A DNA stretch of 63,999 nucleotides, counting the filler, from Dirinaria sp. TL-2023a (Eukaryota): the NCBI GenBank assembly GCA_051941275.1. It is 8 parts of 8 records of this genome, joined end to end, with 100 filler letters (N's around TTAATTAATTAA, not from the genome) between each part and the next. Parts side by side here need not be neighbours in the genome. Positions count along the whole stretch, not along the records: positions 24,522 to 32,579 come from JAVEBF010001238.1; 7 more parts are not named here. One strand, written 5' to 3'. The translations under genes were made by a program, and so were the position numbers. Of the stretch, positions 24,522-32,579 are shown one piece after another; within the stretch, counting starts at the first letter, position 1, and every line of letters starts with the position of its first letter. The notes beneath the pieces were generated by a model. It saw only the letters and a list, made by a program, of their open reading frames with translations. It did not search any database and was not told the origin of the DNA.

Positions 24522-25072
24522 AGACAGTGCATGTGATGGAATGCTTTGATGTGGTATATGCCCTTGCTTTCATCCCATGGGAAACGAGCCGAGAGCGCGA
24601 GGCCATGGCTCTTGGCGTACTCGTCGGATAAGGCGACCACGACGGGGCTGGTGTCGATGGACTCCCAGAGCATATTGGATTCGGTGGTGTTGATGTCGAT
24701 GTAGTCCGTGTGCATGTAGTATGCGACGGGGTGGTCGTATCCCAAGCCACCTGATCGCTCATAGTCAGCATCCTTTGAAAAAAAAAAAAAGTCTAGCCAT
24801 ATGTCGATGAAGGGGGGGCTGAACTTACTGAACTTCGAACGGCCAAGGTCAGGCAGCTTCTTCAGAACATGGTTGTCCCTGAGTAGATACCCATTTGCGA
24901 AAAGCGAGATCGCAAGCAAAAGGGCGGATAGGATGGAGAAGCAGCGGTTGATGATGCTTCTGGTGATGCGTCTCGGACGAGGTTTCTCGTAGACGTGCTC
25001 ATGACCAGCTAAGCTCTCCTCGCTGGAAGAGAGCAAGTGAACATGGGCTTCGTCCTTGTAAGTGTCCATCAT
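24522..25072 (-). CDS. DUF3328 / UstYa-family oxidase, 3' truncated by contig end
   Basis: Short cytosolic N-terminus (MMDTYKDE), one TM anchor (FSILSALLLAISLFANGYLL), NMLWESI, FPWDESKGIYHIKAFHHMHCL (first HxxHC motif). 78-nt GTAAGT...GCTGAC...CAG intron at 24751-24828. Confidence 0.88.
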
Positions 25073-25192
25073 TCTTGATGTCTTAGGCTTGGGGACTGGA
25101 CTTTTTGCAGAGGAGAGAAGGACGGCGGCACTCCTATGTCCTAAGCCAGGACACCGGTACTTGTATGGTGTAAACCTGGGCAACGGTTCGTC

Positions 25193-25267
25193 TTCTAGAA
25201 TCCGGGACAACGGCACTTTCGTATTCTAGAAACCAGGAAAATCGGCACTTGTCTTCTATAAACCAGG
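25193..25267. repeat. ~30-bp degenerate tandem repeat (about 2.5 copies)
   Basis: Units start TTCTAGAA (25193), TTCTAGAA (25224), TTCTATAA (25254); shared CCRGG and CGGCACTT. Confidence 0.7.
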
Positions 25268-25405
25268 TGCTCGAGTGCTCGGACGTCCACATGGTGTAGT
25301 GGTATGGCCGCTGACTTGCTCCAAGGCTGGTTCGATACTGTGCTCACCGAAGGTGCGACAGTCACTATGTTGTCGTTATTCGGTGCAAACTTCATCTCCG
25401 ACGCA

Positions 25406-25600
25406 GTAGTTCCCAGCCAACTGATATGCAGCTCAAGTAGCTCAAGTAGCTCAAGACCAAAGAAGTGTATGTACTAAAGACCCGAAAAAGTAGTTCACGG
25501 CCAACTACCATGCAGCTCAAGTAGCTCAAGGCCAAAGAAGCGTGCTAAACACCTGAAAAAGTAGTTCAGGGCCAACTACCATGCAGCTCGAGTAGCTCAA
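25406..25600. repeat. ~71-84-bp tandem repeat (about 2.5 copies) with internal AGCTCAAGT sub-repeats
   Basis: GTAGTTC...GCCAACT...ATGCAGCTC(A/G)AGTAGCTCAA units start at 25406, 25490 and 25561. Confidence 0.85.
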
Positions 25601-25685
25601 CGTCCGCACGAGTTGTGCTACACAACTCATTCAATCAATCATTGGTCCATAGCATCAATCGCTCGACGATGGCCGTGCTTGAGGA

Positions 25686-25826
25686 GTCATCTGCGAAGTC
25701 ATCTGCAAAGTCATGCGCGAAGTGGTCCGCGAAGTGGTCCACAAAGTGACCTGCGAAGTAACCTGCGAAGTCGTCCGTAAAGTCATCCTCAAAGCCATCC
25801 GCAAAGTCATGCGCGAAGTCATCCAT
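25686..25826 (-). repeat. 12-bp minisatellite (~11.5 units), readable on the minus strand as xxFA tetrapeptide repeats
   Basis: Minus strand reads ATG GAT GAC TTC GCG CAT GAC TTT GCG ... The frame is open from ATG 25826 to stop 25635 (63 aa). Confidence 0.85.
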
Positions 25827-25919
25827 GTAACGGTTCTTGCAGAATTTTTGGTGCAACGTTTCTAGAACGCAAAATGGAACAGGCCAGAGAACTCGCTGGC
25901 TGAGGAGGCTGAGGAATGA

Positions 25920-25925
25920 TATAAA
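25920..25925 (+). promoter_or_regulatory. TATA box of the secreted repeat-peptide gene
   Basis: TATAAA ~170 nt before ATG 26097. A GTAAGC...TAG candidate 5'-UTR intron lies at 26040-26089. Confidence 0.55.
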
Positions 25926-26096
25926 GTTGTTCAAAATCTCCCAAGATTTTGTGATGCAGACAAGCACTCAGCACAAAGCCAACAAAAGCGGGAGAATAGC
26001 CTACCGGTATTGACGCATCTCTTTTCTCAGCATTCACAGGTAAGCAACCTTCCCGTCATAATCCGCCAATCCGGTTAAGATAAAGGTAGATTCGAA

Positions 26097-26354
26097 ATGC
26101 GTTCAATCGCCTTCCTCGGACTTCTCGCGGCCTTGTTTGCCAGCACTATCCAAGGCCTTCCACATAGTGGCTATGGTGAAGGGCCTGCCATGAAGGAACG
26201 AGAAGTAATGGTAGCCAAGCCCGTGCTCGAGGCCCGCCACTGTCCGAAAGCAGAAGAAGGGATGGCAAACCCGCCGGTACTCAACGCCCGACACTGTGTG
26301 ATGGATCCCCCCGTCTTGAATGCACGAGACAGCAAAGCCGGTCCAGTGATGTGA
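26097..26354 (+). CDS. Small secreted repeat protein; candidate RiPP (dikaritin-like) precursor
   Basis: 85 aa. Signal peptide MRSIAFLGLLAALFASTIQG, then segments ending MKER, KPVLEAR, PPVLNAR, PPVLNAR. Divergent from the DUF3328 gene on the same contig. Confidence 0.78.
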   Translation: MRSIAFLGLLAALFASTIQGLPHSGYGEGPAMKEREVMVAKPVLEARHCPKAEEGMANPPVLNARHCVMDPPVLNARDSKAGPVM

Positions 26355-29118
26355 ATGCTCGAAAACCGCTGGCCAATCCGCCTGTGTTTGACGCTTGATG
26401 TGGGTCATGGCCAATTCAGACGACTGCTCAGTATGCTAAAGTGAAACTTAGGGCACGCGAGGACAATGAACATGGCAGGAAACGAAGGACGATCTGCAGC
26501 ATAGGCGGGCGGAGAAGGAAATTCTGGGCAACTGGTGTTTGATGTAGAGTGTTGCAAGCGAGGACCATTTTACCTTTCACTCATTGAACCAACGCACTGT
26601 CATATGCTTTGATTAGAATACGCACAATCAACCTTTCATTAAGCTTTCCGTACTAGCAGTAGGTAGAAAATAATGAGAACATAATATCTTTGGTTCATCT
26701 TGATGCGACGAAAATGTAAGAGTTAGTTCCTCAGGTGCTAAAGTAAACTAGACCTTGAATGACGATTCGCTAATGGAGCCTAGTCGTAGAACCAAAGGAC
26801 CTTGTATTGCCTAATTTGAGATTTTGAATCCCTTAAGAAGTTGTGGAAGTGTCAGCAGTATTGTACCTATTCCACGACGAGGTTAATAAGCCTGAAACAT
26901 TTTGTAGATATAGAGTCCTGAAGCATTTCAGTGCCTTCTATCAATAGGTATACATCTTCAGAACTCTAAGAATGAATGCCGGATCACCTTAGCCAGCAAC
27001 GATGAAAAGAATCAGTAGAACGGTATGTTGTCATTGACGTAGCCAGTACGAGTACGCTGATTGAGGGTTGAGTTACTCGAGGTGGCCAGGTATGGCGAGC
27101 ACAGTAGAATCATGGATGACCGCTTAGCTCGTTAGAGGGATAATCTTGGGTATTCCTCGGGCGATCATTAGTTGGTCACACTAGTGGCGCTGATTCGTGA
27201 TCTCTGTAACACAGCAATGCAGCGGGAAATGCATGGAAAGTGGAATAAAGCCAGGACTGGGAGCTCATTATTGGTCTCCCACTGCACATACGGGAATGAT
27301 CGGATCCATCCGTCCGTACGAATTGATGCTCATGCAGCTGGATCATATGATTCCAACGCTGTTACGGAGGGACAATACTGCAGTTCTGGCTAGCGCAGTC
27401 AGCGAACTTGCTGGCAGAATACCTATAGACTTGTTTTGAATCATTGCCGCAGAGATCTGCTGGAGCTCATCGATGTTCACAAAGCCGCTGCTTCAGTCAC
27501 ACCGATTGCCTTAGCCAAGGTTTTATGTAGTAATACGTGAGTGGGTTCTCATGATCAATTTTCTGAGAAGGAGTACGATAGAAGTGGTAATGATCGACCT
27601 ACGACAGTAGGATTAGCGCCGCACTTTCAGCCTGACGCATACCTGTAGCCATTGGAAATCCATAATTCAGCGTACAAAAGCACATGCTGTCTGTGAGTAC
27701 CCATTGTGCATTTTCCATTCCAGTCAATGCGTACATAGTCTTGTTGCCCGGGAAAGTGCGACTGGGTGTGATTAAGCCTAAGAAGTTGCGAGAAACCAAT
27801 GATTCCCCAGTGTCTTCACAGAAAATATTATTCCAATTTATTTAAGTCATACGGTTCATGCGGTTCGGAGTTGCAGCTTCAAAATTATCGGCCTTCCACC
27901 GAGCCTTCAGGTCGAACAGCGATTCCTGGATCCAAGCGATCTGAATATTTTGAATGAAACTCTCGGTCCTAGTTAGCAGTGAAACATCTTCATAGCTCAA
28001 TTATGTTGTGCTGTTCTTCATATCAGGCAAGTCTGTCTGGTCCATGATGGCACAGCATAAGCTCGAGAATCGATCGAGTCAGCTGGGGAACTTCAGCGAC
28101 CATTAACTAGATGTATCACCATCGACATCCATAAAAGACATCTGCATAACTGAGTATGCGTAAAGCTCGGTCCCTGCTCGGTTTCTCCGTGTAACTTGAT
28201 TGAAATTTACAACCTGCGGACAATCCGGCTGCTATCAGCAATCAATTCAACGAGAGACGGGAAATTATCATTGACGTGCGGTTCCGCTCAGCCGGACCTG
28301 TTGTAGCGCCTCCACCAGACCATAGTCTTACTGAGGATACCAAAGGTAGGTCAGTCGAAAATCCGGACTATCCTTTGGTGATCATACCAGTGGCCAGAGA
28401 TGATGCCGATTGTCTATGTGTTCGAAAAGAGCAACATTCGTAGGACGCAAAGGACCGAAATTACCATGACTTGAGCAATATCTTATTGCATTCATTATCT
28501 GCAGCCGTCTAAGGGTTCCAAGACAAGAACCTTGATATACAGAGACCTCACTACGTCATCATGAGTGGTAGCCAGGAGGTAGGAAGACGAGATGATCTGC
28601 CAATCTTATGGCTCTTTCACATAAGCAAGATGTTGAAACAGGTTCTTGGAGCTCTACAGAGACAGGAGCAGCTGCAATTTCTTTTGGTCAAGGCTTGAAG
28701 GCGCTTGTTGGAAGTATTCAATGTAGTCTGATTTGACATCTTCAATACATGCGAGGAGATCATCGGAGCTACAAGTACTCATTCATCCGAAGCAGTACCT
28801 AGAAATCAATAGATGTCATGATCAGGTAGGAAAATATCTGTAGCAAAAAGATTTATTTGCACATGCCAAGACGCCAAGGTCCCAAGACCCTAGGCCTGAT
28901 CAGGAAAATCTAAATCGTAGCCGAAAATGACGTGTGTCAGCTGGTAAGGCGCGTGTTTAGAAACAGCAGACCGATATACTATATCTTCTTATATTGACCT
29001 GCCATAGACTCCACAGCATGCCTGATAGAATCTGACTGGGTTTTCGAGCTCTACTACAAAAGATCTATCGATCAGTGCAGGGACCCTGCTTACACTTAGC
29101 TCCGTGGGAAGAGAAAAG

Positions 29119-30384
29119 ATGCCGAACGACATGCCATGGCTCCATGATATTCTTGAGTCGGCACCACACGACATGGCAGATGGGCTCTTACCCTGGCATT
29201 TGGGAGTATTTGATGCCCATTGCCATCCCACTGACACTCCATCATGCATAGATAGCATCCCTTGTATGAAGGCTAAGGCTCTCACCATCATGGCTACAAG
29301 GGGAGAGGATCAAGACATTGTAGCCCAATTCTCGGACAGACTTAGCATGACACGGTCCTCAATACAGCATCTGATGAGTACAGATTCCGAGAGCAGCGGA
29401 GAATCTCAGATTGTACCATCATTCGGATGGCATCCATGGTTTTCCCATCAAATATATATTGACGCAAGTCCCGGTTCTGGAAGCGCCTTTAGCGAAGCAG
29501 AAAAGATTTATCATTACAAATCCGTTATTACTCCCGCACCGGAGGACGAGGAATTCCTAAGAGCACTACCCGATCCACGGCCTTTATCTGGCCTTTTGGA
29601 GCAAATCCGGAAATTTCTTCAGCAGTATCCGTATGCACTTGTGGGTGAGATTGGCCTAGACCGGTCATTCAGACTTCCAGAGAACTGGATGCCAAATGTC
29701 CACACGGAACGGGAGGCAGATATGACCCCAGGTGGGCGAGAGGGCCGTCGGCTTTCCCACTTCAAAGTAAACATAGATCATCAGAAATCAATATTGAAGG
29801 CGCAGCTTAAACTCGCTGGAGAGATGCAGCGAGCTGTCTCCGTACACGGTGTCGCGGCTCATGGGGTGCTTTTTGAGACTATTAAGGAATCTTGGCGTGG
29901 ATATGAGAAAGAAGTACTCAGCAAACGAGAGCGGAAGCAGAGAGAAAGCGCAATTAAAGCAACCTTGGAAGACGATGAGGCAAGTGATGAATCTTTTCAG
30001 CCAGGCCCAATGACTTCATCTCTACCTTATCCGCCTCGAATATGTCTTCATTCTTATTCTGGCCCGCCAGATACGTTGAGAGACTATTTCCATCCTTCTG
30101 TACCTGCTGAGATCTTTTGTTCTTTCTCTCTTTTGGTCAATCTCAAGTCTTCGACTGCTACAAAGACTGTGAATGTCATCAAAGCTGTGCCAGATGATAG
30201 AGTACTAGTTGAAAGCGATCTGCATTGTGCAGGGGAACAGATGGATGAATTACTTGAGCGTATGGTTAGATGTGTTTGCAAAGCTAAGAACTGGTCGCTA
30301 GAGCAAGGAGTGAAGCAGCTAAGAGCCAATTGGCTCCATTTTGTCTTTGGAAAAGACGCAGACGCTACAAGCCCGCCGATATGA
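29119..30384 (+). CDS. TatD-family metallohydrolase/DNase (Scn1-like)
   Basis: FDAHCHP, FGWHPWF, VGEIGLD, SVHGV, CLHSYSG and LVESD motifs. Confidence 0.88.
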   Translation: MPNDMPWLHDILESAPHDMADGLLPWHLGVFDAHCHPTDTPSCIDSIPCMKAKALTIMATRGEDQDIVAQFSDRLSMTRSSIQHLMSTDSESSGESQIVPSFGWHPWFSHQIYIDASPGSGSAFSEAEKIYHYKSVITPAPEDEEFLRALPDPRPLSGLLEQIRKFLQQYPYALVGEIGLDRSFRLPENWMPNVHTEREADMTPGGREGRRLSHFKVNIDHQKSILKAQLKLAGEMQRAVSVHGVAAHGVLFETIKESWRGYEKEVLSKRERKQRESAIKATLEDDEASDESFQPGPMTSSLPYPPRICLHSYSGPPDTLRDYFHPSVPAEIFCSFSLLVNLKSSTATKTVNVIKAVPDDRVLVESDLHCAGEQMDELLERMVRCVCKAKNWSLEQGVKQLRANWLHFVFGKDADATSPPI

Positions 30385-30887
30385 CTTAACAGTATTCTTG
30401 GAAGCAGCTCCGTATCAAGGTTATCACAATGATATACCCGTGATTGCAAAGCTCAGAGATCGTCCCTAGAATAGGGAGTGAAAAGGTTAAGATCTCATGG
30501 GCTGCACTTTGCAATAAACACTATGAGGCAACCGTCATAGCACAACGATTAGATCCACAACAGCACGATCTTGCCGACTGCATAACAATATATCGGTGAA
30601 TGTTCAGGGAAGCCTGTGAAAATTATGGCAGATTATCCCAACAATGATACAACCGCGCATGCGGTAGACAGCAGAAGTGTTACACCCCTGGAAGGCTCAC
30701 TACCTATGAATCTTTTCTGCTCTCTCTTTATCTCATTCAATTCCAAGTCCAGTGAATGCCCATTCTTGGTGAGTTGTGTTTTTCTGGGGGGAAAAGCATT
30801 GTGTAGGTCTTGAATCCCCACCACACTGTTCCTCTTACCAAAAATTCTACCCCAGCTATCATTAGCAGGCAGTTTTTGGAGACAATC

Positions 30888-31332
30888 ACCAGATTACAGA
30901 CTCTTTCAAGATCTCTACCGGCTTATCTACGAAATTCAATCTCCTGGTGGACCTGAATCTACTGATTACACTTCCGCTCCTCGCAAAGCGGCCTTCATAA
31001 TTACTACAGCAAGCACCTTGAGCGATCACCAGCATTGCAGACTGCTTCACGATTTGCACCAGCATATCTGCACAATCCAATCTTCCAGCAACCTGAGTCT
31101 ACTGATCCCCTTTCTTTCCTCGCAAGACGATCTTCATAATTACTCAACAGCGTTACAGACTCCGTCAAGATCTCCACTCGCCTAGTTGCACAATCCAATC
31201 TTCTGGCAATCTGACTCTACTGATCCTGCTTTCTCTTCTCGCAAAAAAATCTTCATAATTACTCAATAGCGAGCACTTTGTGGGATCAACAGCATTACAG
31301 GCTCCATCAAGATCTCCAACTGCCTATCTGCA
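30888..31332. repeat. Degenerate ~120-140-bp tandem repeat (about 3.3 copies)
   Basis: Recurring TTACAGACTC..CAAGATCTC, CAATCCAATCTTC, TCTACTGAT, CTCGCAA and CTTCATAATTACT blocks. Confidence 0.8.
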
Positions 31333-31402
31333 AAATAATAGCATTACAATCAGAAAGCTACTCATAATTAAATCTCCGAATATCTTTCTGTCGTTTTACA
31401 CA

Positions 31403-32211
31403 ATGGAAAGCTCGAATACCGCGACACCTAATGCCGCCGGCAGCAGGAAACGGGTAAGTCACCCCCTCCTTTCCTCTCCACCTACCTAACCTCTCTATTC
31501 TAAAAGACCCATACCCAAATGAGCACAAGCACCACCAACTCCCAGCAGACCACAACCAACCGCCGCCCACGAAGGCCCCATCCGCGCCATCGTCAAGGGA
31601 AGCAAATCCCGAACTACCTAGAAGAGAGCCACGATCTTCCGCCAAATCTTACACAAGAGGAAATGATTGTAGGGTATCCAAACCACTTGCGTGGTAAACT
31701 GCTGCTGCAGCTATCCAAGAACTGGACACCAACCGAAATCGCAGCGCATTGCCCTGCCCCAGAAATCAACAAGAACACCGTCGGCAAACGACTCCAAGCT
31801 GCACGCCAGCAGTTCGAACCGGGATACAAGCCGCGGACGCAGAAAAAGAGGAAAACCACAGCCCAAGCAGCTGAGGATGGCCAACCCGAGAACAGTGGCG
31901 CCACCTCAACAAGCCTCTTCCTCCCCGAGGAGACTTCCGCGCCAAACCCTTCCTCACAAGCCCCGCACCATGACGAAACCCAGCTCCTCAAGTTCCGCCA
32001 CCAAGAACAAGAGCTCCTCGAGGATCAAGGCGGGATCCTCCGCCACGCAGAGGCCATAGACCCCGATTTCACGAATCGGAACTGGCTGCCCACTAAGCTG
32101 CGAAAGGAAAATGTGGCGCTGGATCGAAGGGTCGTGAATCAGGCGGTGGTGGCGTGGGAGGAGGAGAAGGAGTTAGCGAGAGGGCTCGAGAGGGAGATGC
32201 AGGAGGGGTAA
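31403..32211 (+). CDS. Hypothetical, probably nuclear protein with YPNHL motif (2 exons)
   Basis: Exon 1 MESSNTATPNAAGSRKR; phase-0 GTAAGT...CTAAC...AAG intron 31454-31506 joins the 230-aa ORF in frame. Basic NLS-like QKKRK and GYPNHLRGKLLLQLSKNWTPTEIA segment. Confidence 0.7.
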
Positions 32212-32579
32212 GAGAGGCTGGAGGGCAGGGGTAAGGCGTAGTGGAGGTTTAGAATGAAGAAGAGTAAGAAGGTTGTTACATGGTAGGAACGGCGGAAGCA
32301 AGAAGAAAGCAGGACCCAAAGAAGTGCTTAGAAACAAATATTTCAAGAAATCATCATAGAGAATCAGTCACTACTTCAAATAGATCGCGATGGCTCTTTG
32401 CTGCTTCTTCGGTCTCTTAGATAGCATACCCAAGAAATCCAATCACGAACTCCTTAAATACCTCCATCCCTTCCCCCTCCCCTCCTCATCCAACGAGTAA
32501 AATCCAATCAACGTACATTAAAATAGTAAGCAAGCCTCTCTTGTCCATCAATTATTTCTCTCTTTCCCTATCCCCCCCC

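Follow-up and report, generated by a model that had tools for sequence, protein, structure and literature searches.

A DUF3328/UstYa gene divergent from a secreted single-Arg repeat precursor in Dirinaria sp. TL-2023a: a candidate two-gene, dikaritin-like RiPP pathway

The closest described counterparts of the locus reported here are asperipin-2a (AprA/AprY) and epichloecyclin (GigA/GigB), in which a secreted multi-unit precursor likewise adjoins a DUF3328 gene (PMC7329392, PMC10540207, PMC9233826) and, as those sources describe them, this gene suffices for cyclisation and few other tailoring genes are found, as here. Their precursors carry dibasic sites and give Tyr-based cross-links, whereas the family described below has single-Arg LxxR sites and an aromatic-free conserved part. 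Ustiloxin, phomopsin and victorin also combine a DUF3328 enzyme with an ER-targeted repeat precursor, but are described with at least two DUF3328 genes and Tyr/Phe cross-links, and in ustiloxin and phomopsin with a tyrosinase (PMC7329392, PMC9233826). CctR, the cyclochlorotine hydroxylase, can be likened to our enzyme by description, sharing the membrane anchor and the HxxHC motif type. KEPs have, like our precursor, a signal peptide, repeated units and Arg-terminated sites; however, the KEP survey defines them by at least three repeats of 8 or more aa between KR, KK, RK or RR (PMC7329392), an arrangement absent from our precursor and largely so from its 29-sequence family. K2PP effectors share the LxxR sites, although their cleavage frees one folded domain and not short repeated peptides. 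In lichens, a RiPP survey presents DUF3328 clusters without a recognisable precursor and, in its accessible text, no repeat precursor in two lichen clans (PMC12048977).

The window analysed is a stretch of 63,999 nucleotides made of eight N-joined parts from the Dirinaria assembly (27.7 Mb in 3,105 contigs), of which the study contig, C1238 (JAVEBF010001238.1; 8,058 bp), occupies positions 24522-32579. A sequence-only reading of this DNA had placed a DUF3328 gene with an HxxHC motif about 1.0 kb head-to-head from an 85-aa secreted repeat precursor, and the arrangement is confirmed: the two genes are divergent, with 1,024 bp from ATG to ATG. Their features are as follows.

24522..24750, minus strand: DUF3328 exon 2, up to the first HxxHC motif (24524-24538), cut by the contig end; supported by relatives, the enzyme tree and RNA, with PF11807 below its cut-off
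24751..24828, minus strand: predicted intron 1, 78 nt, GT..AG, in frame and stop-free, in agreement with the spliced relatives P0008 and P0009
24829..25072, minus strand: DUF3328 exon 1, coding for the cytosolic N-terminal part and the membrane anchor (24899-24955), exon boundary as in locus L065
25073..26039, no strand: shared upstream region, in which a 59-nt repeat occurs three times (25387-25600) and 12-nt units form a tandem array (25668-25843)
26040..26089, plus strand: 5′-UTR intron of the precursor gene, 50 nt, GT..AG, with an RNA joint at 26039-26094 (run X1)
26097..26354, plus strand: precursor ORF, 85 aa, with a predicted signal peptide (about residues 1-20), a pro-region and three LxxR sites
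26217..26237, plus strand: first LxxR site, KPVLEAR, at the end of the pro-region (from sequence, as are the three units below)
26238..26291, plus strand: unit 1, a variable part opening with His-Cys, then NPPVLNA and Arg
26292..26327, plus strand: unit 2, a variable part opening with His-Cys, then DPPVLNA and Arg
26328..26351, plus strand: unit 3, degenerate, with a spacer-like start and the core motif gone, likewise in P0001

The precursor gene, single-copy in the Dirinaria assembly, runs from its ATG at 26097 to a stop codon at 26352-26354, and its predicted signal peptide rests on the hydropathy of the N-terminus (mean 2.7 over residues 4-15). Its Arg-terminated segments end, in order, in LEAR, LNAR and LNAR, and two of its units are intact. 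There is no dibasic pair anywhere in the protein, single-Arg LxxR sites standing in their place, and its units contain no Tyr, Trp or Phe, with His confined to the variable part. The repeats are constrained at the protein level, the two PPVLNAR copies differing in 6 of 7 codons with every change synonymous; the same layout recurs at 74% identity in the precursor P0001. The locus thus has two dikaritin features, a multi-unit precursor that is ER-targeted by hydropathy and a linked DUF3328 gene, and lacks two others, dibasic Kex2 sites and an aromatic core residue; because these two are missing, the pathway is, judged by its sequence, dikaritin-like and not a dikaritin.

From its start at 25072 (minus strand), the DUF3328 gene can be followed to its HHMHC copy of the HxxHC motif at 24538-24524, directly after which the contig ends. 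Its product has one N-terminal membrane helix (residues 40-58, mean hydropathy 2.0 over 19 residues). The truncated, unspliced piece scores 19.9 bits against PF11807 (E=7e-4; cut-off 25 bits), whereas the full-length relatives P0008, P0009 and P0013, 65-67% identical to it over exon 2, score 76-85 bits. A second HxxHC is present in the orthologs P0008, P0009, L065 and L069, at a position that in our gene would fall beyond the contig end, and searches of the assembly by family, by DNA and with three proteins did not find this 3′ half. A close relative of the enzyme, KAL9005344.1, is known from Gyalolechia gomerana. This relative and a lichen metagenome RNA run, the one sequencing run found for the assembly, make the organism probably a lichen-associated ascomycete. 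None of the solved structures matched P0008, and the protein-atlas look-alikes, which scored below 0.9, were left out of the analysis.

Transcription was assessed with run X1, the assembled RNA contigs of a close relative, 12 of which fall on C1238, mostly 90-95% alike; uncovered stretches were given no weight as evidence. Both the precursor and the DUF3328 gene are covered, which attests transcript presence in one sample, not co-regulation. One contig has a joint at 26039-26094, with a GT start, that agrees with the 5′-UTR intron of the precursor gene, and none of the RNA joints listed bridges predicted intron 1 of the DUF3328 gene. A second contig extends 255 letters past 24525, beyond the end of C1238, and its first 30 letters there are in frame and ortholog-like, without the intron found at that point in L065 and L069.

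On the precursor side, the readable one, no further tailoring genes were found: this side holds a TatD-family gene (PF01026) at 29029-30381 and ORFs without Pfam matches. One of these is a 235-aa frame at 31504-32208, where a spliced X1 contig has a joint at 31452-31506. X1 contigs also lie over 27240-27526 and 28060-28260, where no ORF has a Pfam match, and may reflect an unrecognised gene or library DNA. Within the shared upstream region, the 12-nt array at 25668-25843 contains on its minus strand an open Asp/Phe-rich frame, again with no Pfam match.

Two profile searches, cluster look-ups and the loci described below gave a precursor family of 29 distinct sequences, near-copies included, one of them, KAF2659358.1, from Lophiostoma macrostomum; two further profile-search candidates, P0017 and P0022, carry unrelated repeats and were removed. 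The family unit is xxxx-DPPVLNA followed by Arg, and relatives hold 2-8 units. Over 92 units, the positions left free by the search pattern show D in 76, P in 77, N in 85 and A in 77, while conservation at the P, V/I and L that the pattern required is partly built in; the four residues ahead of DPPVLNA have an entropy of 2.5-3.0 bits. Tyr, Trp and Phe are absent from the family-wide conserved motif, and 18/29 sequences have no dibasic pair anywhere. The last unit lacks its Arg in 27/29 precursors, and DPPVLNA is the exact C-terminal end in 21/29, or 27/29 counting close variants. Such an end fits cleavage at the Arg sites with subsequent trimming, and every unit would therefore have an identical C-terminus. 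The sequence-only reading had also called the precursor one of unrecognised type, and this still holds, no such type having been found in print: a full-text search of the accessible literature for the DPPVLNA-type motif returned two unrelated papers, and no title or abstract opening among those listed on DUF3328 RiPPs mentions such a precursor family.

Our preferred reading, which we consider moderately probable, is a minimal two-gene, dikaritin-like RiPP pathway yielding a modified peptide centred on DPPVLNA, from a precursor family not in print. Because the repeated unit lacks the ring-shaped residues that such enzymes usually join, the probable product of the pair is a modified peptide of a kind not yet described. 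The precursor would enter the ER through the signal peptide suggested by its hydropathy, and kexin would cut each L-x-x-R behind its single Arg, presumably in the Golgi, with Kex1 then removing the Arg to leave released units ending in (D/N)PPVLNA. The membrane-anchored DUF3328 enzyme, with a lumenal two-copper HxxHC..HxxHC site, would oxidise an unactivated C-H within D/N-P-P-V-L-N, as the chemistry of its family suggests, and the variable N-terminal residues would be spacers or accessory extensions, His-Cys being a late gain in the Dirinaria lineage.

We propose unit release in the Golgi and oxidation within D/N-P-P-V-L-N because of the precedents of Kex2 cutting at LxxR, single-Arg cleavage of fungal repeat proteins, C(sp3)-H activation by DUF3328 enzymes and GigB-dependent cyclisation. 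Kex2 is described as favouring Arg at P1 together with Leu at P4, and as cutting LxxR pro-domains in vitro (PMC8528282; bioRxiv 2020.05.27.120113); against cleavage at LNAR, Ala at P2 is missing from the preferred residues as given in the accessible text of PMC8528282. Cleavage at single Arg has been observed for fungal repeat proteins (PMC9769878). DUF3328 enzymes are described as oxidases with a membrane anchor and two coppers, capable of activating C(sp3)-H bonds, CctR hydroxylating an aliphatic C-H with Cu/O2 (PMC12435403), and gene disruption links GigB to the cyclisation of epichloecyclin (PMC10540207). The aliphatic chemistry of CctR would suit a Pro/Val/Leu core, although the substrate described for it is a cyclic peptide made non-ribosomally. 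If the pair is functional, a side-chain cross-link from the Asp/Asn or C-terminal heteroatom to a Pro, Val or Leu carbon (-2 Da) is the outcome we would put first, by analogy, at slightly under an even chance; these heteroatoms are proposed since the conserved stretch has no Tyr, Trp or Phe. Hydroxylation, desaturation or halogenation of the unit comes next, as a possibility of only slightly lower standing. The calculated [M+H]+ values without modification are 1777.836 for unit 1, 1195.560 for unit 2 and 725.383 for DPPVLNA. Against an aromatic-free core, the cyclic dikaritin-type products covered in the review PMC9233826, as far as its available text goes, are cross-linked via Tyr or Phe.

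A functional pair could also be read the other way round, with the variable N-terminal part (here His-Cys-...) as the core and DPPVLNA as a follower or recognition sequence doubling as a protease site. Both intact units of our precursor and of P0001 open with His-Cys, and recognition sequences are described as often being the conserved parts of RiPP precursors (PMC12048977). A follower would likewise persist in the last unit, so that an Arg-less end is compatible with a variable core as well and, taken alone, such an end does not separate core from follower at the sequence level. The composition of the variable parts (EGIA, DGKA, VGKA, TELE, VIA) nevertheless speaks against their being the core: they share no common reactive residue, vary in length and, in 54/92 units, have Ala as their last residue, resembling X-A dipeptide spacers, and it is because of the missing reactive residue and the spacer-like ends that we favour DPPVLNA. 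Cys occurs in 3/29 sequences only, which counts against a His-Cys core, and units containing HC in 2/29 (our precursor and P0001). The cores proposed from sequence, HCVMD and HCPKAEEG, therefore fall in the variable, lineage-specific part, since HC starts are found in 2/29 sequences while the conserved DPPVLNA ends 21/29 exactly, and we do not retain them; a core in the variable part seems to us unlikely. P0037, which carries a Tyr-Pro-rich insert, also has Cys in both later units, which suggests that the variable part gained Cys independently more than once.

A scan with the enzyme alignment returned seven related loci (L065-L071), and in four of these (L065, L066, L069 and L070, from two other lineages) the enzyme is again divergent from a precursor, located 643-760 bp upstream and composed of a signal peptide and xxxx-DPPVLNA-R units. 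L065 and L066 are identical across the 2.2 kb compared, L069 is 97% like L070, and over exon 2 the two lineages and our gene show 64-73% nucleotide identity among one another. The remaining three of seven loci have no precursor: L067 and L068, of one lineage, have an open DUF3328 frame and no precursor within the DNA read around them, and upstream of L071, a distant copy, the DNA is AT-rich. Searching 15,934 six-frame segments with the precursor profile matched the pair loci and C1238 only, with no match beside the other DUF3328 genes of the Dirinaria genome. In a tree over 76 columns, the 17 rows of related enzymes group as a single clade (96/100 branch), apart from 19 paralogs in the Dirinaria genome. 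Four of 16 clade enzymes lie on contigs equal in size and source to that of a precursor (P0003/P0043, P0009/P0035, P0010/P0031, P0024/P0034), a match on size and source alone for which simulation gave about 0.02 expected; the other 12 have no size-matched precursor contig, several of theirs being shorter than 3 kb. Scans of metagenome contigs for precursors, with patterns taken from the non-conserved pro-region, and of prokaryote genome contigs for the enzyme found nothing. The proposal that a DUF3328 enzyme and a secreted repeat precursor belong together is thus borne out by linkage in 4/7 loci and X1 RNA on both genes, and we state with high confidence that the pair is real and conserved.

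In the DNA read for L065-L070, a single DUF3328 enzyme was seen and no tyrosinase, and apart from the precursor the nearby genes are limited to a pair of MFS transporters, an FAD oxidase and a membrane protein of PF20684. The MFS and FAD-oxidase genes were considered as core pathway genes and set aside, having no close matches in the Dirinaria assembly. This synteny of MFS, PF20684 and FAD-oxidase neighbours would also be expected if linkage were no more than inherited gene order, the precursor giving linear unmodified peptides and the enzyme acting elsewhere. In L067/L068 the enzyme frame is still open though the precursor is gone, which favours a separate target; non-ribosomal peptides are reported as substrates of some DUF3328 enzymes (PMC12435403), and many repeat-protein peptides give linear products (PMC9769878). 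However, our pair has other genes around it (TatD) and the neighbours of L065 have no close match in the Dirinaria assembly (best 49%, 26% and 43%), so that on the readable side the pair has persisted longer than its surroundings. The genome-wide peak of DUF3328 genes immediately beside repeat-precursor genes (PMC7329392) also counts against inherited order, and we regard linear products as quite improbable. That the locus is decaying, with the enzyme truncated or the precursor losing cores, is very improbable. In favour of decay, the assembly lacks the enzyme's 3′ half, the third precursor unit has degenerated, and the PF20684 gene that comes after the precursor in relatives is missing; against it, the break falls at a contig end in an assembly of 3,105 contigs, the relative's RNA reads on in frame beyond it, the layout is retained by P0001 at 74% identity, and the repeat differences in our precursor are synonymous.

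Returning to the DPPVLNA-centred pathway, the PF20684 (PTH11-like) gene that adjoins the precursor in L065, L066, L069 and L070 allows us to speculate about an ancestral three-gene signalling module of precursor, DUF3328 enzyme and PTH11-like receptor, with an aromatic-free cross-linked peptide as the ligand of the receptor, an idea that we hold to be distinctly unlikely. In favour of a module, the PF20684 gene of L067/L068, where the precursor is absent and the enzyme frame open, has a frameshift and no first exon; against it, one deletion could account for the loss of both precursor and receptor exon. No PF20684 gene was found on C1238. The Dirinaria genome has at least 139 PF20684 loci (150/274 candidates scored), and one lies within 5 kb of 7/17 DUF3328 loci versus 1/32 PKS loci (p=0.001); 9/39 O-methyltransferase loci also have one (p=0.21 versus DUF3328), which counts against a DUF3328-specific link. 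A DUF3328 list including C1323, removed on being recognised as a P450, would give 8/18. In a tree of 57 hand-chosen rows out of these at least 139 loci, with L068 left out for its frameshift, a supported subclade (97/83) takes in 7/10 of the genome's own DUF3328-adjacent receptors versus 9/45 others (p=0.004 in this hand-chosen sample). The DUF3328-adjacent label requires 9 changes in the tree versus 11.1 when shuffled (23/500 shuffles as low), which means that the receptors concerned do not make up a single clade. Also against the module, PTH11-like genes have been reported in gene clusters before, at 4.2% and mostly of PKS/NRPS-like type according to PMC12842992.

Elsewhere in the genome, classical Tyr-containing repeat precursors, most with KR/RR, lie by DUF3328 genes on C402 (L050:7564-8156), C207 (L051:6349-6762), C497 (L055:4414-4887), C2329 (L027:660-1281) and C24 (L057:9100-9645), giving Dirinaria several predicted dikaritin-like loci. 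Short signal-peptide genes, intron-split or single-exon and showing few repeats or none, are found beside DUF3328 on C1744 (L047:47-400), C119 (L045:8179-8700), C30 (L043:2862-3014), C432 (L048:7125-7650), C250 (L060:7764-8110) and C25 (L082:6304-6501). By eye, a candidate precursor is present at 12/17 DUF3328 contigs, with none seen at C921, C1732, C1443, C611 and C1207. On C811 (L079:2235-4640), a PF20684 gene from the subclade of the DUF3328-adjacent receptors and a small signal-peptide ORF lie tail-to-tail, with no DUF3328 gene seen within the 10 kb read.

Surveys based on dibasic sites have a blind spot here, as they miss LxxR-type precursors. The receptor lead, if true, would provide candidate ligands for a large fungal receptor family. 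If the DPPVLNA-centred pathway is true, a DUF3328 copper enzyme would cross-link or oxidise an aromatic-free ribosomal peptide, extending fungal RiPP chemistry beyond the Tyr/Phe rule in what would be an easily tested two-gene system.
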